A DNA stretch of 64,000 bases from Eledone cirrhosa. Its lineage: Eukaryota. Location: NCBI GenBank assembly GCA_964016885.1, contig OZ024749.1, forward strand, positions 16,368,001-16,432,000, written 5' to 3'. The notes under the pieces were generated by a model, which searched no databases, was not told the DNA's origin, and was given only the letters and a program-made list of their open reading frames with translations. Shown here piece by piece: positions 7,224 through 62,076 of this stretch. The position numbers and the translations under genes were made by a program. Each line of letters opens with the position of its first letter. Position 1 is the first letter of the stretch.

Positions 7224-8235
7224 TATTTAGAAACACACAGATACATGCGGACACACACATATATACATGAATGCGTCAGCACCCAACTGTGAGTTAAGGG
7301 TGCCAACTTCACCGATGTTGCTCAATGAATGACTGGGATAGACCAATTCAGTTGAACTAGACTGAACCAGTATCAGAGTTAAAAATACATTATGAAGAGA
7401 GAAGAAATAATTTAGATATAATTAGTAATAAAATGTATCATACCTAAACTGCTCCTAAATTCCTCGACTACGTAGTTTCGTGGCATAAACAAAAACAATA
7501 TATCATAAAGATATAGAGTCCTTGCGAGGTCTGCCGACTTATCAAGAGGATACCTCATTTTACTAGTCTCAAGAACGCGTCTACACGACGTGAGAAAGAA
7601 TCCCAAAAGGCGGAGGGGGAGACAGTCACGCGATATAACGGTCGAGAAACAGAGCTAAGCCTCTTATAACCCCGAAGAAAATACCACGGAGGCGGAGGGG
7701 GTATTTATATCGAGGCCGCAGAAGAGGGGGTGAAGAAGGCGAGAAGTATGAGTAATGGAAGCTTTCCAGCTGTCCCCAGACTTCAAAGATTGCTCGACCA
7801 GAGGGAGTTATTAACAATATATTTAGAAACACACAGATACATGCGGACACAGCTGGAAAGCTTCCATTACTCATACTTCTCGCCTTCTTCATCCCTCTTC
7901 TGCGGCCTCGATATAAATACCCCCTCCGCCTCCGTGGTATTTTCTTCGGGGTTATAAGAGGCTTAGCTCTGTTTCTCGACCGTTATATCGCGTGACTGTC
8001 TCCCCCTCCGCCTTTTGGGATTCTTTCTCACGTCGTGTAGACGCGTTCTGGAGACTAGTAAAATGAGGTATCCTCTTGATAAGTCGGCAGACCTCGCAAG
8101 TACTCTATATCTTTATGATATATTGTTTTTGTTTATGCCACGAAACTACGTAGTCGAGGAATTTAGGAGCAGTTTAGGTATGATACATTTTATTACTAAT
8201 TATATCTAAATTATTTCTTCTCTCTTCATAATGTA
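7224..8235 (-). mobile_element. Non-coding hammerhead-bearing foldback element (PLE-dependent/retrozyme-like), ~595-nt monomer
   Basis: Inverted arms 7387-7773 and 7849-8235. Sequence at 7225 recurs at 7821 (596-bp period). Flanked by (TA)n. Second copy at 60821-61845. Confidence 0.8.
8071..8160 (+). ncRNA. Type I hammerhead ribozyme motif, U3-A8 core variant
   Basis: TCCTC-TTGATAA-GTCGGCA...TGCCAC-GAAA-CTACGTAG-TC|GAGGA. Stem I is TCCTC/GAGGA, stem III is palindromic, cleavage triplet is GUC. Mirror copy on - strand at ~7461-7550. Confidence 0.7.
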
Positions 8236-8960
8236 TATATAAATGTATATATATATTATATATATATACATATATATATATAGTTATATATATAGACATA
8301 TATAGTTATATATATATTCATATATATATATATATATAGTTATATGTATATGTGTATGTGCATATATATATATATGTATATATATGCGTGCGTGTGTGCA
8401 TATAGGTGTGTATATAGGTATGTATACGCACGTGTCCTGTATTTAGTATATATCGATTTACTGCGTATAGATCTAAGTATATGTTAATCAGTACAATATG
8501 AACGTGTATATATATATATATATATATACATACACACACATATATACACACATACACACACATATATATATACACACACACACACATATATATACACTCA
8601 CACACATATATACACACACACACATACACACACACACACATACACAAACACACATATATAGATATATATATATATATATACACATACATACACAGATACC
8701 TACATACGTACATACATAAATACATACATAAGAATGTATATTTAGTCTAGCTGTGAATTTGTTATATAATTCTTCTTGCTTGTCCGTGAGTATATACACA
8801 CACACACACACACACACACATACACACACATACACACACACACACACATAAAGAGAGAGAGAGAGGGGGTATAAACCAATACATGGTTGAGTGCAGAGAC
8901 GACGCAATATATTAATGTTGTATTAACAGGGTTTTAGTTTCAATGCTATACTAGAATTCT

Positions 8961-22635: not shown

Positions 22636-22863
22636 AGATGATACATACCCTGACATGGTAGATGGTTAAGATTCGGTCATGGTAGTGAGTAATATATGAC
22701 AAGACTCAATATTTATATACCTTAATATTGAGAAACATGAAAAAAATATATAATACATACAATAGAGAGGGTGCGTGTGAGACAGCTTATTGTAAAACTC
22801 ATTCTTTGATTTATTCATTGAACCTTGTTTAACTTTTAAATATATATATATATATATATATAT

Positions 22864-23065
22864 GTAGAAGTTCTATTTAAATTGTTGGGATACAACAAGC
22901 AAATATTTTTATAACTGATATAAAGCACTCAACAAATTATTGGAGAAAAAATACGATATATTAACAAATGGAAACTATATTTATAAAACCATATTTATTT
23001 CATTATACATATTTCAAGGACAACAAGTTAAATTATGGTGTGCTTTCATCAGATAAAATATAATA
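22864..23065 (-). mobile_element. PLE pLTR/tail copy with hammerhead
   Basis: Same family as the 57436-60142 terminus. TTTCA...TCATCAG on + at ~23012-23052. Starts at (TA)n. Confidence 0.75.
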
Positions 23066-24046: not shown

Positions 24047-24077
<31 letters not shown>

Positions 24078-25853
24078 CGATATTAACAAATGGAAACTAT
24101 ATTTATAAAATCATATTTATTTCATTATACATATTTCAAGGATACCAAGTTAAATTATGGTATGCCTTCATCAGACAAAATGCAATATATACCAGTTTTA
24201 TAAATAGACATTGACGTACCCTTTCAAAATGCGACCGTTACTTTTGGAAGACATCAGGATAGTGGTTTGTTTACTTTAGTAAATCGTAGTGTTAAGGATA
24301 AGTAAAAAAGACGGAGAGAGAGAGAGAAACGTGGAGAAAAGAAAGGGAGAGATAAATAAAGAAAAAGAGGAAAGAAAAAAGAAAAAAAGAAAACAGAGGA
24401 AAACAACAGAGAGATATCAAACCACCAGACAGAGAGAAAGAACACAAGAGAGAGAAATATAGAGATAGAGAGAGGGGAGAGAACGAAAACTTTAAGTCAT
24501 GTCATATTAAGTTTAGTTAACAATTGAGATGAAATGAATAAATAAAATTAGAAATATTAATATTCATGAATGGAATATACGTATATAATATGAGAAATTA
24601 ATCATTGTTTAATTACGATTAGATATTTAGTTTAAAAATTGAGATCAATATATTAAAAATTGGAATTTAAACATCACAAAATATATATATTGCTAGAGAA
24701 ATTACCTATCGTATAACACGTACATATAGGCAAAGATACATAAATATATATATACACACACACTCAGAAAATATACACTATATCTACTCCCGCATATAAT
24801 ATATACATACAAAGCATAAGTGATTTTTTTTATTATTGCTATACATTCCTTGTGTTATTAAATAAAAATTCTTAGTATATATATATAAATATATAGGATT
24901 AACTTTCATGCATTTATGGCTGTTAAAATCATGCATATCTGCAATCAAAACTGTATGGGTAAGCATGTACATGCACAATTCCTAGCTATACATATATAAT
25001 ATATAAATATGTGTGTGCATCTTCACCCAATTGGTAGACACGCGTCACTCATGCATATATACAGACAGACGTATAATCATAAAAAAGCATATAACACATG
25101 TATATGTATGTTAATACACATATATAGATATATAGTCGTATATAGATAAGTACATCAATATATTACATAGTACAATTGAGTATATAAAATACAAAAGGAT
25201 TATATTTTGGAAATATAATTGTATCAATATAACTTAAAAGACAAACGAATTCTACAAATATCGTATATTCCATTCATGAATATTAATATTTCTAATTTTA
25301 TTTATTCATTTCATCTCAATTGTTAACTAAACTTAATATGACATGACTTTAGGTTTTCGTTCTCTCCCCCTCTCTCTATCTCTATATTTCTCTCTCTTGA
25401 GTTCTTTCTCTCTGTCTGGTGGTTTGATATCTCTCTGTTGTTTTCCTCTGTTTTCTTTTTTTCTTTTTTCTTTCCTCTTTTTCTTTATTTATCTCTCCCT
25501 TTCTTTTCTCCACGTTTCTCTCTCTCCGTCTTTTTTACTTATCCTTAACACTACGATTTACTAAAGTAAACAAACCACTATCCTGATGTCTTCCAAAAGT
25601 AACGGTCGCATTTTGAAAGGGTACGTCAATGTCTATTTATAAAACTGGTATATATTGTATTTTGTCTGATGAACGCATACCATAATTTAACTTGGTATCC
25701 TTGAAATATGTATAATGAAATAAATATGGTTTTATAAATATAGTTTCCATTTGTTAATATCGTATATCTACTCCAAATACTTGTCGAGTGCTTTATATCA
25801 GTTATAAAAATATTTACTTGTTGTATCCCAACAATTTAAATAAAACTTTTGCA
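24078..25853. mobile_element. Non-coding PLE derivative with ~500-bp inverted arms
   Basis: Arms 24078-24581 and 25262-25762, a hammerhead in each, ~90-nt extra tail on the right. Interior resembles the 3' UTR at 57600-58450. (TA)n on both sides. Confidence 0.85.
25658..25722 (+). ncRNA. Type I hammerhead ribozyme motif
   Basis: TATTTTGT-CTGATGA-ACGCATACCA...TGGTATCCTT-GAAA-TATGTA-TA|ATGAAATA. Confidence 0.75.
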
Positions 25854-25879
25854 TATATATATATATATATATATATATA

Positions 25880-26081
25880 GGTTTTAATATAGAAGAGCTT
25901 CTACAGGACTAGAACTGTTTAATTCGTGAGAAATCATCCAGAATCTGATTCCTGATTATTTCTCACGAATGAAACAGTTCTAGTCCTGTAGAAGCTCTTC
26001 TATATTAAAACGTTTATACTCTGCTATGTATTGAGTACCTTACTTACTGTGGTTACCTCCGATTCAACCCGGAATAACTTA

Positions 26082-26082
<1 letters not shown>
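25880..26082 (+). mobile_element. Short foldback element with degenerate hammerhead and 70-nt tail
   Basis: Arms ~25880-25945 and 25947-26011. CTGATTA-TTTCTCACGAAT-GAAA. (TA)n flanks. Related fragment at 32087-32130. Confidence 0.7.
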
Positions 26083-26141
<59 letters not shown>

Positions 26142-29034: not shown

Positions 29035-29328
29035 AAAATAAAAAACTCTTTTTTTTTTTATTTCGCTCTACATGGCTGAATACAATAACTGTAATCTGAG
29101 TTTTTCGAATACTAATAGTAATATTCGATTCGTTGCAATTATGCAAACAAGCCTCACTTTTAAAGCCATGTCAGTAGAATGAGACCCTCATTCTTGCTCT
29201 TATGTTGGCAACACAAAAGCAAGAATGAGGGGCTCATTCTACTAACACGGCTTTAAAAATGAGGCTTGTTTGCATAATTGCAAACGAATCGAATATTATT
29301 ATTAATATTCGAAAAACTCAGATTACAG

Positions 29329-29331
<3 letters not shown>
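29035..29331. mobile_element. Hairpin element with ~118-bp arms and a left-side tail
   Basis: 29085-29203 versus 29213-29331, ending in (TA)n. Confidence 0.75.
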
Positions 29332-29393
<62 letters not shown>

Positions 29394-30545: not shown

Positions 30546-30569
30546 TATATTTATATATGTATATATATA

Positions 30570-31384
30570 GGCATAGGTTAAGAATAACGTCCTCGAAATT
30601 GAAAGTGGATTTTCTGACAAGTGAATGTGTTTTTTTTTTTTACAATGAAATTTACGATACACTCTTTGTTTATTTACAACAGGTCTCTATAGTGATATGG
30701 TGTTAATTAGTATTGCGTGTGTGATTATTTTCTCTTATATATATATGTGTGGGTGTTTATATGTGTGTATATATATGTGTGTCTGTATGTATATATATAT
30801 GTGTGTTTGTATATATATATGTGTTTGTGTCATCATCATCGTTTAGATGTTTTTGTAATATCTTGCCAAAGTTGACACCAACTATAAACAAATTAAGGCC
30901 GGGTCATAAGAAGGACATAAGGGATTTGGGTAAAAACATCTAAACGATGATGATGACACAAACACATATATATATACAAACACACATATATATATACATA
31001 CAGACACACATATATATACACACATATACACACCCACACATATATATATAAGAGAAAATAATCACACACGCAATACTAATTAACACCATATCACTATAGA
31101 GACCTGTTGTAAATAAACAAAGAGTGTATCGTAAATTTCATTGTAAAAAAAAAAAAAAACACATTCACTTGTCAGAAAATCCACTTTCAATTTCGAGGAC
31201 GTTATTCTTAACCTATGCCATATATGTATATCTGTTAGAACACGAAAAGTGTGAAACAACAGAATGTTCACTTTTCGTGTTCTAACATATATGCCTAACT
31301 CCTTCATAAATTTTTCGGGGATAGCCGTGGTGGTGGTGATCGTATGTCATTGGCTAATTTTCAACCAATCAGAGTAAGTGTTGA
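30570..31384. mobile_element. Foldback element with ~285-bp arms and ~165-nt tail
   Basis: 30570-30854 versus 30932-31219. Extra internal hairpin at ~31233-31286. (TA)n flanks. Confidence 0.8.
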
Positions 31385-32751: not shown

Positions 32752-33151
<400 letters not shown>

Positions 33152-35999: not shown

Positions 36000-37004
36000 T
36001 CCTGTTTAACTAGAGTTATTACAAGCGTTGCCTTAAAAAAATATTAAACTAGACATGAAAAATGCGCAAGCTCAAAAGTGCCACAGAATGTTATAATAAA
36101 CCTTCAAAAGTGTGGGACTAGAGTTGTTGCTAAAAAATATTGTAATCATTATATATCGTACATTCTGTGGCATCCTTTATAAAAATAGCTTAAACCAACG
36201 AAGCCTTTATTTTTACGCTATTTCACTTAGTTAATTCTTAGAGTGTAACATATAAAAATAAATACATCTATGTTTAATGTAATAACAGCTATAAATAATT
36301 ACGTAATATTATTATCATATACTCATAGTAACAAAATAATTGTGTTGAAAATTAATATGATGCTTATATGAACGATCAAATCTATAATGATAATTTCTTA
36401 AATATACTAATAGTAAAATAATTTAGTTATCTATTGTTACATTTTCATAGAACTATAATATTAACAATCGTATTGCATTATCAAATTTTTATCACTACAA
36501 ACTTTCATATTGGAATTACCTTAAGCCACTTATTATTACTTCGCTTTCGTACTTTTACAACTGTAGATATTGCGCTGTATCTTATATCTAATATCAATAT
36601 CTCATGGTAATTTGCATGCAGTGTAAAATAGGTTTATTAATAACTTTAATATGAAATGTATTATACAGGGCTGCGGAGTCGGCCAAAAATTGACTGGCTC
36701 CAACTCAGGATCCGATATTCCATTATTTCTTAAATTTCAGCTCCGCAGCTCTGTTATTATATTAATTAATTTATTTTATAGTTGTAAATCATATTTTTAT
36801 ATGTTACACTCTAAGAATTAACTAAGTGAAATAGCGTAAAAATAAAGGCTTCGTTGGTTTAAGCTATTTTTATAAAGGATGCCACAGAATGTACGATATA
36901 TAATGATTACAATATTTTTTAGCAACAACTCTAGTCCCACACTTTTGAAGGTTTATTATAACATTCTGTGGCACTTTTGAGCTTGCGCATTTTTCATGTC
37001 TAGT
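36000..37004. mobile_element. Foldback element with 213-bp, apparently identical inverted arms
   Basis: 36048-36260 versus 36792-37004; AT-rich spacer. Confidence 0.8.
36666..36753. mobile_element. 88-bp hAT-type MITE
   Basis: TIRs CAGGGCTGCGGAG / CTCCGCAGCTCTG; 8-bp TSD GTATTATA / TTATTATA. Confidence 0.7.
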
Positions 37005-40872: not shown

Positions 40873-41480
40873 ATCATATATAACAAGCAGACTTTAATAT
40901 ATACATATATCTACCACATCAATACATCCCACCTTGATATCATATATACATATATATACACACCACAGCCATATACACCACCTTCATATCATATATATAT
41001 ATATATATATATCTACCACAGTAATATATCCCATCTTGATATCATATTTATATCTACCACAGCTATATACCTACCACAGCTATATGATATCATATATAAC
41101 ATGTAGTTTTTAATATATATCTACCACAGCTATATGATATCATATGTAACATGTAGTCTTTAATATATAACTACCACATCTATATGATATCATAAATAAC
41201 ATGTAGTCTTTAATATATAACTACCACAGCTATATAATATATATAACATGTAGTCTTTAATATATATCTACCACAGCTATGATATCATATATAACATGTA
41301 GTCTTTAATATATAACTACCACAGCTATATATCATATATAACATGTAGTCTTTAATATATATCTACCACAGCTATATAATATATATAACATGTAGTCTTA
41401 ATATATATCTACCACAGCTATATGATATCATATACAACATGTAGTCTTTAATATATATCTACCACAGCTATATACCCCAC
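40750..41480. repeat. ~45-bp AT-rich minisatellite (CTACCACAGCTATATGATATCATATAACATGTAGTCTTTAATATAT)
   Basis: About 9 tight copies at 41050-41475, degenerate copies upstream back to ~39740. Confidence 0.9.
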
Positions 41481-41508
41481 CTTGGTATCAAATATATATA
41501 TATATATA

Positions 41509-41975
41509 TCAAGTAAGTATGTTTTGAAACAGTGAGCGAGTTTGAAATTAGAAAATATATAGCTTTCACCGTATTTTTGACTAAAGGAATTTTAGCCTGA
41601 TAACGGGGTTTAGAACCCTCAGATAAATGGAAAAAGATGAGTATTGACGTACATGGGAGTCGAACCCACATCTTTGGTTATCGCGACCACTGTGCTACCA
41701 TTACACCAACACATCACCATTCAAACACTCTTTCCATTCAAATTACTTACTTGCCATTTAAACTCGCTAAGAATGTAGTTTCTAATTTGAATGGAAAGAG
41801 ATGGGTGATGTGTTGGTGTAATGGTAGCACAGTGGTCGCGATAACCAAAGATGTGGGTTCGACTCCCATGTACGTCAATACTCATCTTTTTCCATTTATC
41901 TGAGGGTTCTAAACCCCGTTATCAGGCTAAAATTCCTTTAGTCAAAAATACGGTGAAAGCTATATATTTTCTAAT
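41509..41975. mobile_element. Foldback element carrying a tRNA-like cloverleaf in each arm
   Basis: Arms ~41547-41745 and 41785-41975, 38-nt left tail, (TA)n flanks. Confidence 0.8.
41807..41877 (+). tRNA. tRNA-like sequence (pseudo-tRNA/SINE head), nominal anticodon CGA
   Basis: Acceptor GATGTGT/GTACGTC-A, D arm GTGT-AATGGTA-GCAC, anticodon arm TGGT-CGCGATA-ACCA, T arm GTGGG-TTCGACT-CCCAT. Mirror copy at 41645-41715 (-). Confidence 0.6.
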
Positions 41976-42317
41976 ATATATATATATATATATCAGAGTA
42001 TATACCCCACCTCGATATCAAATATCTACCTACCAGAATTTGATATGGCATATAAGACACTGTTTTTAACAGGGCAAGGATAACTTGTAAATTAACGGCT
42101 GGGATTTCCAAAATAAACAAATCTCAGATATTGAAGCTGTGTAAAATAATAGTTCGAGATGTGAATTTCGTGTTTACATACATCTATTGTTTCGGAATGT
42201 TTGGCTTGAAAGACTGAACTGTTAATTAAATATAGACAGGAACACACATATATAATGTGTGTGTGTGTGTGTATGTGAGTAGAGAGAGAGATAAATAGAT
42301 ATATGTATATATATATG

Positions 42318-47294: not shown

Positions 47295-47765
47295 GATATG
47301 TATGAATGTATGTATATATATTATCGGGTCACTCTTGAGTGCTACTGGGAACATGTAACCCAGTAGAACCTGTCGCATGGTAGGGTCGCCGGCGACTAAA
47401 TCGGCAACACCACCAAGTTTACTTGGTGAAGAGAGTGATTTTGGACACCCTGCAGGACAAAAAGCAAAACCTGACAAAGGGCAGAAGAACTCATAAGAAT
47501 CAACGGCCATCCAAAAGTGTGTAAATATGTACATGTGTGCGTATATATATATATATATATATATTTCGTTTCTGAATTTGTTTAGCAAGATTTTTATCAG
47601 AAAACGTGTGTTGAAACCGATATTGTTATACTTTGGGAGGGTCATGTTGCCAATTAGAAACACACGCACCAGTTGCTTTCACTTCAATTTATTATAATAA
47701 ATTTAGGAATTTATAAATTTCCGGTTGGTTGGTTGGTTCCACAACCAGATGGTTGTTTATATATT

Positions 47766-47808
47766 GTCAAAGTGCTTTCGTCACACATTCTGTGACCTCT
47801 TCAGTGAC
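47766..47808 (-). ncRNA. Minimal type I hammerhead in the pLTR
   Basis: GTCA-CTGAAGA-G-GTCACA-gaatg-TGTGAC-GAAA-GCAC-TT|TGAC. Confidence 0.7.
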
Positions 47809-48059
47809 TGGGGATTCTTTTCTTTGTTTTTCGTGCCTCTCCTTTGTTCTGTCCTACGCCATCTTGTTTTTGTGTGTGTGTTGTGTGCTTAGTTTGCGCA
47901 TGTGTTACATCCGGGTGTCTGTGCGTGTTTATATTCAGCAGAATCGGCGACAGTTGGTTGTTTGTTCTACGTGCGTGTGTGTTTTCATTTTGTCCTTAAT
48001 TGTAAGTTGTGATGTTGCTGTTCCACTCATGTTTTCTATTTAATTTTGGTTGTAATTCA

Positions 48060-49663
48060 TTTATGTTTATTGCCTCTGTGATTTGTCTAAACATTGCGTC
48101 TTTTCTGTGTAGATTCTATTTTTATTTCTATGTTTTCTAATTTACCCTTATGTTCTATTTTAGCATGTTGGTAGAGTACAGATGATTCTTTACTATCTTG
48201 AAGGTCTCGCCAGTGTTCATTTATCCGTTCCCCTATACTACGAGCTGTCTCACCTATGTACACTATATTTTTATCTCTACATTGTCCTTCAGTACATCTT
48301 ATGCTATATACTACATTTCTAGTTTTACAGTTAATATGGGGGCTTAATTTACAGATTATACATTTATTATCTATACAGGGAGGTCTTTGAAAAGTGTATG
48401 TATTGCTAATAAGTGTTTTTATGGAGGTACTTGGTCTTTCTACTATCTTAATATTGAGTTTATGTTTATCTGGGCCCTTCTAAATTTGTAAGCTAATTCA
48501 CCTCTAGGGGTTGTATCGATGAACATTACACTCTGGTATTTATTGCTATCATACCATGAGTTTATTCTATTAGCCTTATTCCTAGTTCTTTCTATTCTAT
48601 TCCAAAATTTGCTCCTATACAAGGGGCAGGTCCTATTTGTGTCATTATTTACCATTTTTCCCATTTGGTTCTGGCTCCTCTATACACTCTGATTTTATCT
48701 CTCTGATTGTAACCAGAGAACTGCATACGATGGATGAAGTGTTGTATGTGTCTCTCTAGTTCTTCGGGGTTGCACATGCGGGACACGTTTCTCATCAAAT
48801 CCGCAATCAGTATGTTGATTTTGGTATGGTCCGAAACAGCTGAGTTTCGGTGGATCAGATATTTGGAAGTCATGGGTTTGGTATAATGGAAATGGAGGAT
48901 TTGTTTTTTGTTATTAATGGTATCTAACCAGAGCTCTGTGTCTAGTACAGGTAATCGATGGTTGGGATGTTTGCTTGGGTAGTCTATAGTAACTCTAATA
49001 CTCTGGTGGATGGAGTTAGCTATTTGCTGGATGTTTTCCATTGTGTTTTTCTCTAATTCCTGAATGTTCTCTAGTGGGGGTGTTTTAACTACGATGTTTA
49101 TATCATCAACGTAGCGGGAGTACATTATCAGGGTTAAGGGGTTTTCTAATTGTTCTTTAAGTTTAAGTCTACTGTCCCACCATACCATGAATAGGTTAGC
49201 TATGTCGCCTGCAATGCTAACACCAATGGCTGCTCCCACCTCTTGGGCATATGTTTTTCCATTAAATTTGAACATATGTTCCTTAAGGGTTAATTTTATG
49301 CCGGCCCCCACCGCATGTGCAATCATTTTCTTTAGTTCATCGTGGTTTTCGGCTCTGGTCCACCCGTTCCATCTATCTGTGTGTGTTTTCTTGGCCATTG
49401 AGGTAATGGTAGGTGGTCTGCCTCTTGCTGGTCTTGTAGGGCACAGGTTGCTAATGTCATATGTGTCTAGATAATTATAACTATAGGTAAGTTTAAGTAG
49501 GAGTCTCAGCTCACTGGTATCAATCCCACGGAATTCAACATTGCTCTCACTGATCATTTCTACACATTTCTCCACAGTAAAAGCCACGTCAATAGATGGA
49601 TACAGGGATACAACATCCATACTACCTATTATGCAGTCTGTTAGGTCCCTAGATCGGTTACTC
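48060..49663 (-). pseudogene. PLE reverse transcriptase plus C-terminal GIY-YIG endonuclease, frameshifted
   Basis: GSMDVVSLYPSI, QEVGAAIGVSIAGDIANLFM, RYVDDI, LPVLD, YTKP; then CIDNKCIIC...CKTRNVVYSIRC...VYIGETARSIGERINEH...SVLYQH. Confidence 0.95.
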
Positions 49664-49996
49664 TCGCCGATTCTGCTGAATATAAACACACACAGACACC
49701 CAGATGTAACACATGCGCAAACTAAGCACACAACACACACACAAAAACAAGATGGCGTAGGACACAACAAAGGAGAGGCACAAAAAACAAAGAAAAGAAA
49801 CCCCAGTCACTGAAGAGGTCACAGAATGTGTGACGTAAGAACTTTGACAATATATAAACAACCATCTGGTTGTGGAGCCAACCAACCAACCGGAAATTTA
49901 TAAATTCCTAAATTTATAAATTTATTATAATAAATTTAAGTGAAAGCAACTGGTGCGTGTATTTCTTATTGGCAACATGACCCTCCCAAAGTATAA

Positions 49997-50072
<76 letters not shown>

Positions 50073-55210: not shown

Positions 55211-55212
<2 letters not shown>

Positions 55213-55419
55213 GAAAATGTGTGATCCCGACGGCAGAGCTGAAGCCGTTTCGACGGCTATTTCTGGACTGAAATAGCCGTCGAGTCCATAAATAGCCGTC
55301 GAAACGGCTTGAGCTCTGCCGTCGGGGTCATACATTTTCCTATTACCCACTCTACTACCCTAAGTATTGAGTACTCTGGTGCGTTATAGTCCATCTGGTT
55401 CTTTACCACAACTCCTTCG

Positions 55420-55421
<2 letters not shown>
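55211..55421 (+). mobile_element. Short foldback element with tail; second copy at 22367-22507
   Basis: Arms ~55211-55268 and 55284-55341; GTCGAAACGGCTTGAG resembles a hammerhead 3' half. (TA)n flanks. Confidence 0.7.
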
Positions 55422-55499
<78 letters not shown>

Positions 55500-58963: not shown

Positions 58964-59910
58964 CTACATTTTAAATTTATATTTATATTTAAAAGTTGAG
59001 TTCAATCTATGTCTGCAGCAACTGAATAAATTTGTCCGTAAATTAAGGGAATTTTTAGATTTTAGTATAAAGAATTTCTCCTCCGTGCAGAGGTCACATG
59101 TCTCAGAAGATGAATTAAAAGGAATCCCTCTTGAGACTATATTCCAAGCCGTCGAATATCCAACGTTATCATGCTTAAGTTGCCAGAGTAAGCCTGATAG
59201 TGATGTTGAAGATTTTTTGCTTGGATCTGTGAAAGAATCCTTGTGGTTATTATAGCGAAGTTTAAATTCTGTCGAGGTGGAACCAACATAGTTAAAAGAA
59301 TTTAAGTCCGTTTTAACATTACAGTTGTATATTATATTTTTAACTAAGCAATTGTTATTTAACGGACATTTAGATCTATCTCTACAGTTACATTTGTTTA
59401 CTTGGATATTATTTAGGCTATTATCGGTATTTTGGCTAGGTTTTAAATTCCTATTATTTATTCTATTAATATTTTGTGCTAAATTTTTGGTGGATGAGTA
59501 AGTTAATTTTATAGTATGTCTATTGAAAATTGAGTGATACTTATGTGTTCTAGGGAAGCGATTATCAAGAGCATTAAAAAATAGTTTAGCGATGTGGGTT
59601 TTAATGTTTAGTGAGAAAGGGGGGGGGGGGGCAAACCATATTATGTTTCTAGTTCTATTTCTTGTTTGGCTTTTGGAATTATTGTAATGCTTTCTATTAT
59701 AGTTGTTAAAGTTGTTGCCGTAATTAAAATTGTTGTTATTTTGGTTAGTTTGTCTATTATTATCTATGTACATAATTTTATCACTATATCCTGCTCTAGC
59801 TAACGCTTCATTGTAATACTGGGCTTTTTCGTCGAAAATCTTTTTATTAGATGAGATTCTAGAGATACGTTTTTGAACAGAGTTCACTATAGTATTTTTA
59901 ACAGTATTTT
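58964..59910 (-). CDS. PLE thumb/linker plus GIY-YIG endonuclease (truncated ORF, frame open)
   Basis: KRISRISS, YNEAL..AGY, RNIIWF.PPFS, CNCR...CPL...CL...IIY...YVGST...FK.RY.NHK.SF, CDLC.EEK, LN.R....CCRHR. Confidence 0.9.
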
Positions 59911-59946
59911 TGTCAAATCTATCTATTTATAAGACTGTTTATATTG

Positions 59947-60012
59947 TATTTTGTCTGATGAAGGCATACCATATTTTTAATATGATATCCCTGAAATATA
60001 TATAATGAAATA
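59947..60012 (+). ncRNA. Type I hammerhead ribozyme motif
   Basis: TATTTTGT-CTGATGA-AGGCATACCATATT-ttt-AATATGATATCCCT-GAAA-TATATA-TA|ATGAAATA. Mirror at ~57477-57542 (-). Confidence 0.8.
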
Positions 60013-60228
60013 AATATGATTTTATAAATATAGTTTCCATTTATTTAATATCGTAAATATACTCCAAATACTTGTTGAGTGCTTTTATATCAGTTATAAA
60101 TATTTACTCGTTGTAACCCAACAATTTAAATAAAACTTTGCATATATATATATGTATATATTGTACATAATATATATTTATATATATATATTGTACATAA
60201 TATATATTTATATATATATATATTGTAC

Positions 60229-60795: not shown

Positions 60796-60820
60796 ATATA
60801 TTCTACATAATATATATTTA

Positions 60821-61845
60821 CATTATGAAGAGAGAAGAAACATTTAGATATAATTAGTAATAAAATGTATCATACCTAAACTGCTCCTAAATTCCTCGAC
60901 TACGTAGTTTCGTGGCATAAACAAAAACAATATATCATAAAGATATAGAGTCCTTGCGAGGTCTGCCGACTTATCAAGAGGATACCTCATTTTACTAGTC
61001 TCAAGAACGCGTCTACACGACGTGGGAAAGAATCCCAAAAGGCGGAGGGGGAGATAGTCACGCGATATAACGGTCGAGAAACAGGGCTAAGCCTCTTATA
61101 ACCCCAGTTCAACTGAATTGGTCTGTCCCAGTCATTCATTGAGCAACATCGGTGAAGTTGGCACACTTAACTCACAGTTGGGTGCGGATGCATTCATGTA
61201 TATATGTGTGTGTCCGCATGTATCTGTGTGTTTCTAAATATATTGTTAATAACTCCCTCTGGTCGAGCAATCTTTGAAGTGTGGGGACAGCTGGAAAGCT
61301 TCTATTACTCATACTTCTCGCCTTCTTCACCACCTCTTCTACGGCCTCGATATAAATACCCCCTCCGCCTCCGTGGTATTTTCTTCGGGGTTATAAGAGG
61401 CTTAGCCCTGTTTCTCGACCGTTATATCGCGTGACTATCTCCCCCTCCGCCTTTTGGGATTCTTTCTCACGTCGTGTAGACGCGTTCTTGAGACTAGTAA
61501 AATGAGGTATCCTCTTGATAAGTCGGCAGACCTCGCAAGGACTCTATATCTTTATGATATATTGTTTTTGTTTATGCCACGAAACTACGTAGTCGAGGAA
61601 TTTAGGAGCAGTTTAGGTATGATACATTTTATTACTAATTATATCTAAATGTTTCTTCTCTCTTCATAATGTATTTTTAACTCTGATACTGGTTCAGTCT
61701 AGTTCAACTGAATTGGTCTGTCCCAGTCATTCATTGAGCAACATCGGTGAAGTTGGCACCCTTAACTCACAGTTGGGTGCGGATTTATTCATGTATATAT
61801 GTGTGTGTCCGCATGTATCTGTGTGTTTCTAAATATATTGTTAAT
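60821..61845 (+). mobile_element. Second copy of the ~595-nt hammerhead monomer element
   Basis: 61106 recurs at 61701 (595-bp period). Inverted arm 60821-61105. Hammerhead at 61510-61599. Confidence 0.85.
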
Positions 61846-62076
61846 ATATATTTATATATATATTGTACATAATATATATTTATATATATATATTGTACAT
61901 AATATATATTTATATATATATATTGTACATAATATATATATATATATATATATATAGATATATATATAATATATATGTATATATATATATTGTACATAAT
62001 GTATATATATATATATAATATATATATATACATATATATATAATATATATTTATATATATATATTGTACATTATAT

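Follow-up and report, generated by a model that had tools for sequence, protein, structure and literature searches.

The question raised by this locus is what kind of repeat carries a complete tRNA cloverleaf in both arms of an inverted insertion, and by which machinery such a repeat is moved. The window, meaning the whole 64,000-nucleotide stretch of Eledone cirrhosa contig OZ024749.1 that was analysed (positions 16,368,001 to 16,432,000; G000:C9), belongs to a 3.0-Gb animal genome, and (TA)n tracts and PLE fragments with hammerhead cores are abundant in this setting.

Examination of the locus revealed that a non-coding 259-nt unit is inserted there head to head, with (TA)n on either side, the two target tracts (41492..41509 and 41976..41993) being read directly from the sequence. 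The left tract is followed by a long arm on the minus strand (41510..41718; unit positions 51-259), an inversion junction on the same strand made of two short unit patches (41717..41745; unit positions 33-41 and 30-47), a short arm on the plus strand (41744..41975; unit positions 250-259, then 1-222) and the right tract. The middle of the insertion is upstream unit sequence with no spacer, the right arm spanning 41744-41975 in full, and the two arms are 100% complementary over 172 nt (41547-41718 against 41804-41975). By mapping on the unit, the long arm is 5'-truncated 3 nt upstream of its cloverleaf and terminates in a 37-nt tail (41510..41546, minus strand); the short arm terminates without one. 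This tail is normal unit sequence, which in other copies reads on into the next tandem unit. The one-sided tail and the (TA)n target had already been noted in the first-pass annotation, and both were recovered here. MicroRNA matches at the locus were discarded, as they reflect only the perfect inverted repeat. Directly left of the insertion lies a 50-bp minisatellite (41064-41473), and the TA tract hit is in a related unit.

Each arm contains the 71-nt cloverleaf with A and B boxes that had been described at first reading, at 41645-41715 on the minus strand and 41807-41877 on the plus strand; both score 41.2 bits against the Rfam tRNA family (gathering score 29), and ARAGORN agrees. In the right arm the A box lies at about 41814-41824 and the B box at about 41857-41867. 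The fold is non-canonical at the locus: it has G33 and U37, G27 is mismatched with A43, and a long variable arm is missing. The 'Ser(CGA)' label attributed by ARAGORN is accordingly meaningless; across the family a canonical anticodon loop (U33 and a purine at 37) and stems were not found, position 33 being G or U by subfamily. The flanks were also said to extend the acceptor stem by about 17 bp. This holds for the right arm, where unit mapping and folding pair a purine-rich 5' strand (41790..41806) with a pyrimidine-rich 3' strand (41880..41896) in a clamp of 17 bp including two G-U pairs. It does not hold for the left arm, in which the clamp is incomplete: this arm reaches only 3 nt past the cloverleaf on the upstream side, where the two short patches make the join.

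Copy number had been proposed beforehand as a test, and the unit proved to belong to a high-copy family. A DNA search of the genome returned 1,249 candidates, the best matches among the 40 scored being 98-100% identical. Exact patterns matched the genome 1,607 times for the tail, 611 times for the young-type cloverleaf start, 1,033 times for the A-box/B-box pair (cloverleafs with intact boxes) and 1,496 times for the T arm and clamp, and reversed-pattern controls for all four gave 0 matches. The 259-nt units are arranged head to tail, and copies are 5'-truncated, tandem or inverted. In two further subfamilies the unit is longer, measuring about 269 nt in C and 290 nt in B. Subfamily B forms a satellite: six 10-kb stretches sampled at C28:19.44-19.66 Mb hold 31-34 units each, at about 92% identity, giving an array of about 220 kb if the gaps between the stretches, which lie outside the sample, are filled as every sampled stretch is. 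A seventh stretch sampled just beyond the array edge contains no subfamily B units. The array runs on the minus strand from G000:C28:19,440,600 to at least 19,660,000 (L261-L266), and its edge is interrupted by DNA judged by eye to resemble a Helitron fragment. Elsewhere, a single insertion between (TA)n tracts (L121, 371-7269) comprises 25 tandem units and a 382-nt inverted arm; it was considered as evidence for circles and dismissed, its 25 units having variants in common. At C1:263.15-263.17 Mb (L215 and L150), a block of about 2.4-2.8 kb in which the element lies beside a Neptune-like end is repeated several times.

The geometry of insertion was examined at 89 loci, all on C1, that between them take in the majority of the first 100 tail matches (out of 1,607); with L121 excluded and duplicates merged, 141 segments remained. 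At their 5' ends these tail-picked segments meet an inverted arm in 108 cases, a simple repeat in 27 and other DNA in 6. The 3' ends adjoin a dinucleotide run, mostly TA, in 126 of the 141, and are bimodal, falling at unit positions 256-266 or at 197, 214 or 222. A long arm is matched with a short one in 74 of the 90 inverted pairs; at loci not picked by the tail the figure is 30 of 35. Among 47 pairs of inverted arms, rare variants are shared 20 times, but only 5 times among 335 random pairs; this excess over random copies indicates that the inverted arms come from one event. Foreign DNA of 80-200 nt was seen between inverted arms at L224:1420-1502, L228:1550-1748 and L188:808-883, and in L224 and L228 both arms end at tRNA position 7-8. 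No empty allele was seen in the contigs of one sample, in which contig depth is no measure of copy number.

The hallmarks of PLE insertion given in PMC8557442, in the portion available, are 5' truncation, partial tandems, an inverted copy, a one-sided tail of 30-40 bp and a microsatellite target. The family displays 5' truncation with partial tandems, a truncated inverted copy at the 5' side, a one-sided tail and (TA)n targets. An ordinary tRNA-derived SINE that depends on a LINE, and whose inversions arise by twin priming, would share the tRNA-derived head with A and B boxes, and SINEs are abundant in octopus according to the available text of PMC13282606. This explanation appears very improbable indeed: the tRNA is internal to a tandemly repeated unit, the element has neither poly(A) nor a simple-repeat tail of its own, and its 3' ends, which fall into two fixed classes separated by about 37-45 nt and both face outward on (TA)n, contradict such a geometry. 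No LINE-type or poly(A) tail was found among the family copies examined, TSDs being unreadable in (TA)n, and the outcome that the first-pass annotation had itself set against its reading, LINE tails and TSDs without inversion, did not appear among the other copies. Its proposal of a non-autonomous, PLE-mobilised element is well supported by the multi-copy family, the tandem and inverted copies, the tail, the (TA)n targets and fusions to PLE terminal repeats.

A resemblance to the 3' half of a hammerhead ribozyme had also been suggested. The motif GAAAGCTA does exist at 41955..41962 on the plus strand, but no hammerhead 5' half accompanies it, and it belongs to no detectable hammerhead. Rfam reported no hammerhead at the locus, and a genome search for a hammerhead core joined to the 3' half of the element gave 0 matches. 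In a sense-strand scan of subfamilies A, B and C, no CTGANGA (at most one mismatch) with a stem II was found before GAAA; the same scan recovered 4 of 6 PLE controls. GAAA itself is replaced by GATA in subfamily C. Folding predicts instead a 7-bp stem between 41566-41572 and 41530-41536 (41530..41572, minus strand), formed by the tail with the GGTGA belonging to the 'GAAA' motif and enclosing a loop that contains the two most frequent ends of short arms; shuffle support for this stem is weak, as 50, 50 and 10 of 500 shuffles scored equally well. The change between GGTGA and GGCGA before GAAA covaries with the tail in this stem (one compensatory event, in subfamily C). A general PLE stem between body and tail was rejected after inspection of 8 other local fold-backs. 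The element therefore appears, on its sequence, to lack the type I hammerhead that defines retrozymes, none having been found. That it is nevertheless a canonical retrozyme whose hammerhead is cryptic or dimeric is an explanation to which tandem 259-290-nt units and a satellite array lend some credit, as do the palindromic AGCT after GAAA and a CTGAG or CCGAG upstream. With no core in subfamilies A, B and C while most PLE controls score, no genomic match of a core to the 3' half, GATA in subfamily C and GGTGA/GGCGA covarying with the tail, we consider it very improbable.

A candidate partner for the element lies in the same window, outside the insertion, at 47561..50002 on the minus strand. 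This 5'-truncated PLE has a reverse transcriptase, a CX4CxxC linker, a C-terminal GIY-YIG domain and a hammerhead core, together with an inverted arm and a 59-nt tail; the name Neptune-like is given here from motifs in the available text of PMC8557442 and not from a tree. Its family has 24,763 candidate matches in the genome; the 121 scored show, leaving aside the window copy itself, 93-95% amino-acid identity, and young copies retain open frames of up to 1,257 amino acids. Its 3' ends also fall into short (25) and long (21) classes, with 49 of 54 on TA. Direct fusion of the tRNA-bearing element to a PLE terminal repeat occurs in 4 of 346 segments, three detected by BLAST (L107, L074, L196) and one by reading (L059). 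The fusions span more than one PLE family, the Neptune-like PLE being the one joined in L107, and could stem from nested insertion into the (TA)n tracts that both use. The 3' part of the element shows no significant similarity to the Neptune-like 3' end (106 of 1,000 shuffles), and a common GTGAAAGC...TTTCTAATT motif was set aside as not significant. Among the PLE families surveyed within the window, and among the tail loci read, no autonomous PLE with the same tail was found; all 30 of those loci are the element family itself. Naiads, for their part, have long been inactive in cephalopods (PMC8557442, in part). On balance, we give even chances to the Neptune-like family being the partner.

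Other PLE-related material was observed in the window. A second family (58964-60161, 24070-25860 and 22837-23065) carries CTGATGA hammerhead cores and, on the minus strand, a frame resembling GIY-YIG; its fold-backs are long and its tail is longer. Further inverted insertions lie at 7379-8242, 60819-61846, 29085-29332, 25874-26090, 55211-55430, 30560-31230, 32853-33064 and 36048-37004, several of them with one-sided tails on (TA)n; the first two belong to the same family, and the window scan found no hammerhead core in them.

If a PLE moves the element, the role of the tRNA module has to be accounted for. A single pattern search found two tRNA-Gly-type genes in the host, and the D and T arms of the cloverleaf resemble host tRNA-Gly(TCC): the D arm agrees at 16 of 18 positions and the variable and T arms at 17 of 21, against 2 of 7 and 2 of 8 for the acceptor strands and 6 of 17 for the anticodon arm. 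Eight of the 21 cloverleaf pairs are altered on both sides yet still pair, and one is broken. Provided that this tRNA-Gly gene is the source, as we assume, the fold would have been selected at the RNA level; another source would weaken the argument. Strict patterns for the source tRNA gave 0 matches in viral, prokaryote and metagenome collections. Covariation inside the family does not reach significance: 3 pairs are altered on both sides, a value at least equalled in 281 of 500 shuffles. The clamp shows no covariation, only A/G changes opposite U, with one pair broken in 6 of 19 rows, and in subfamily B the top acceptor pairs are altered or broken. A 196-nt stretch of the right arm folds with a z of -2.5; for whole units, stability is marked only in the young subfamily (z -2.75 and -1.83), the values being +0.25 in B and -0.95 in C. 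The tRNA region with its A and B boxes is retained in every subfamily, while the tail and spacer vary in length.

Within the 3' strand of the clamp, 10 nt after the cloverleaf, is a TTTTT run resembling a Pol III terminator (41887-41891, plus strand), which is present in all aligned subfamilies. A run of five T is expected to end most Pol III transcripts before they reach the tail. Pol III drive of the element, suggested by its sequence, is possible, yet this run counts against it, since any Pol III transcript must read through. No copy ending at the terminator was found among the 12 candidates read, most of which are point changes or deletions. Such a run is also what a normal tRNA gene would bring along. 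The cloverleaf and clamp of a PLE-mobilised repeat might then be mere passengers, a captured tRNA gene with its terminator and a relic of fold-back, with templates supplied by Pol II read-through from introns or arrays. Fold-back patches of exactly the clamp sequence are indeed present at the locus junction, the clamp has no significant covariation, and retrozymes are reported to be promoterless and dependent on read-through (PMC7761336, available text). A passenger module does not readily explain why A and B boxes are kept across subfamilies in which tail and spacer lengths shift, nor why eight two-sided changes preserve the cloverleaf, and we hold this explanation to be a serious but rather unlikely one.

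The points at which copies stop offer a further view of the template. Counted over 133 segments whose 3' ends are normal, the rate of stops per nucleotide at risk reaches 0.122 at unit positions 114-118 (56 stops), at the junction of the T stem and acceptor, about 50-fold above most of the unit; it amounts to 0.038 at 51-61, 0.028 at 86-89 and about 0.002 elsewhere. The equivalent of this main hot spot for 5' truncation and inversion in the right arm is 41867..41871 (plus strand). It accounts for 48 of 79 inverted and 10 of 23 non-inverted copies, and joints in independent contigs (one sample) gather at it as well. Other 4-nt palindromes that are passed earlier are not hot, and the tRNA-free Neptune control has no such peak, none of its 5-nt bins collecting more than 4 of the 29 ends. 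Some copies begin close to tRNA +1, and 5' ends also cluster at tRNA +1 to +8, in the anticodon loop and at positions 63-67; in the set of 152 cloverleafs the peak at 61 is inflated, L216-L235 having been picked for a mismatch at position 60. In the same set, 94 of the 152 cloverleafs extend far upstream. The element consequently does not begin at its tRNA, and extension into an upstream unit implies multi-unit templates. The simplest reading is that the reverse transcriptase encountered a folded, perhaps modified, cloverleaf, cleavage of the RNA at the stop points being the alternative.

That alternative can be stated more fully: host tRNA enzymes would cut a multi-unit RNA at the cloverleaf, in the manner of mascRNA, and supply the PLE machinery with unit-length linear or circular templates. 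It would fit the failure to detect a hammerhead, the acceptor and anticodon stems that still pair despite being rewritten (a DNA promoter needs no pairing) and the 5' ends clustered in the cloverleaf, and a paired purine-rich leader and trailer promotes RNase P cleavage of MALAT1 in the available text of PMC8457004. MALAT1 nevertheless needs a bulge 5' of the cut, where the clamp is continuous; the main stop lies within the cloverleaf and not at +1; and most cloverleafs run well upstream. Circles of one unit are weakly opposed by tandem neighbours, which have rare variants in common only 2 times in 15 pairs, against the 20 in 47 of inverted arms. We therefore regard processing by tRNA enzymes as unlikely.

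Taken together, the locus is one copy of a non-coding, tRNA-bearing repeat that is likely made from multi-unit RNA, with a PLE supplying the reverse transcriptase and endonuclease for its insertion. On a nicked (TA)n tract, reverse transcription would begin from the tail end. The folded cloverleaf, chiefly its T-stem/acceptor junction, would be where the enzyme stalls or runs into the end of the RNA, and the same template would also yield an inverted second arm without a tail. The tRNA module would be kept as an internal Pol III promoter which, in a tandem copy, would transcribe into the next unit, as in SM-alpha. By burying the acceptor ends and the U-run, the clamp would shield the long RNA from tRNA processing. 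Shielding is preferred as the role of the clamp, since its 5' strand is free of bulges and in MALAT1 an uninterrupted stem of this kind reduces processing by RNase P; the combination of internal promoter and shielding clamp is put forward tentatively, its chances falling a little short of even.

Several known systems resemble this element in part. SM-alpha and Sj-alpha, SINE-like repeats of schistosomes, are likewise short, non-coding and tandem, and their Pol III-type promoter lies elsewhere than at the beginning of the processed unit, which means that expression would require tandem copies; the SM-alpha hammerhead is active (PMC6765202, available text), whereas none is detectable here, and the element adds a full cloverleaf in a 17-bp clamp and a PLE-type insertion geometry. 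Animal non-LTR retrozymes have units of 250-300 nt, are dispersed and arrayed, and are proposed to depend on PLEs (PMC7229834 and 10.64898/2026.07.22.740005, both in part), but they carry a type I hammerhead per unit, circular RNA and pLTR homology, and neither a hammerhead nor significant pLTR homology was detected in the element. The Chlamys element MRC1 (PMC8557442) and the short non-autonomous Penelope elements of heliconiines (PMC6685494) are also non-coding, head-to-tail, pLTR-like and often hammerhead-less, as far as the available portions of these sources go; elements of the MRC1 type are generally similar in their 3' end to an autonomous partner, and the available part of PMC8557442 describes none with a tRNA module. 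The mascRNA of MALAT1 has a tRNA-like fold whose purine-rich leader pairs with the trailer to lengthen the acceptor stem, but its extension is 7 bp with a 5' bulge in a single-copy lncRNA (PMC8457004, in part), against 17 bp, a 3'-side bulge and a mobile repeat here. The element is best filed between SM-alpha, animal retrozymes and non-autonomous PLEs, as a tRNA-bearing, hammerhead-less member. The first-pass annotation had overstated its case in recognising no described class, since SM-alpha, PLE-linked retrozymes and hammerhead-less non-autonomous Chlamys elements had been described; the exact combination, a tRNA-bearing and hammerhead-less PLE client, was not found in the full-text literature searched, a scope outside which lie most subscription papers, Repbase, Dfam and the O. 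vulgaris library. The family may already sit unnamed in Repbase, in Dfam or in that library (PMC13282606, in part).

PLE priming, the formation of the tail and of the inverted arm, and the role of the hammerhead are treated as unresolved in the available text of PMC8557442. A young, high-copy, 259-nt client without a hammerhead offers in vitro PLE assays a compact template, and its natural junctions, numbering in the hundreds, record where reverse transcription starts and stops. Our findings suggest PLEs as possible partners of tRNA-derived repeats; they also suggest that the 'SINE' and 'tRNA-Ser' calls in automated octopus annotation include some elements of this type. A bolder proposal, which we consider doubtful, is that of a ribozyme-free retrozyme, in which a captured tRNA fold has replaced the hammerhead and would serve both as a Pol III promoter and as a signal for cutting, perhaps also circularisation, by host tRNA enzymes, with the clamp tuning the processing. 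If true, it would make this family a SINE-like lineage partnered with PLEs rather than with LINEs, and able to seed satellites.
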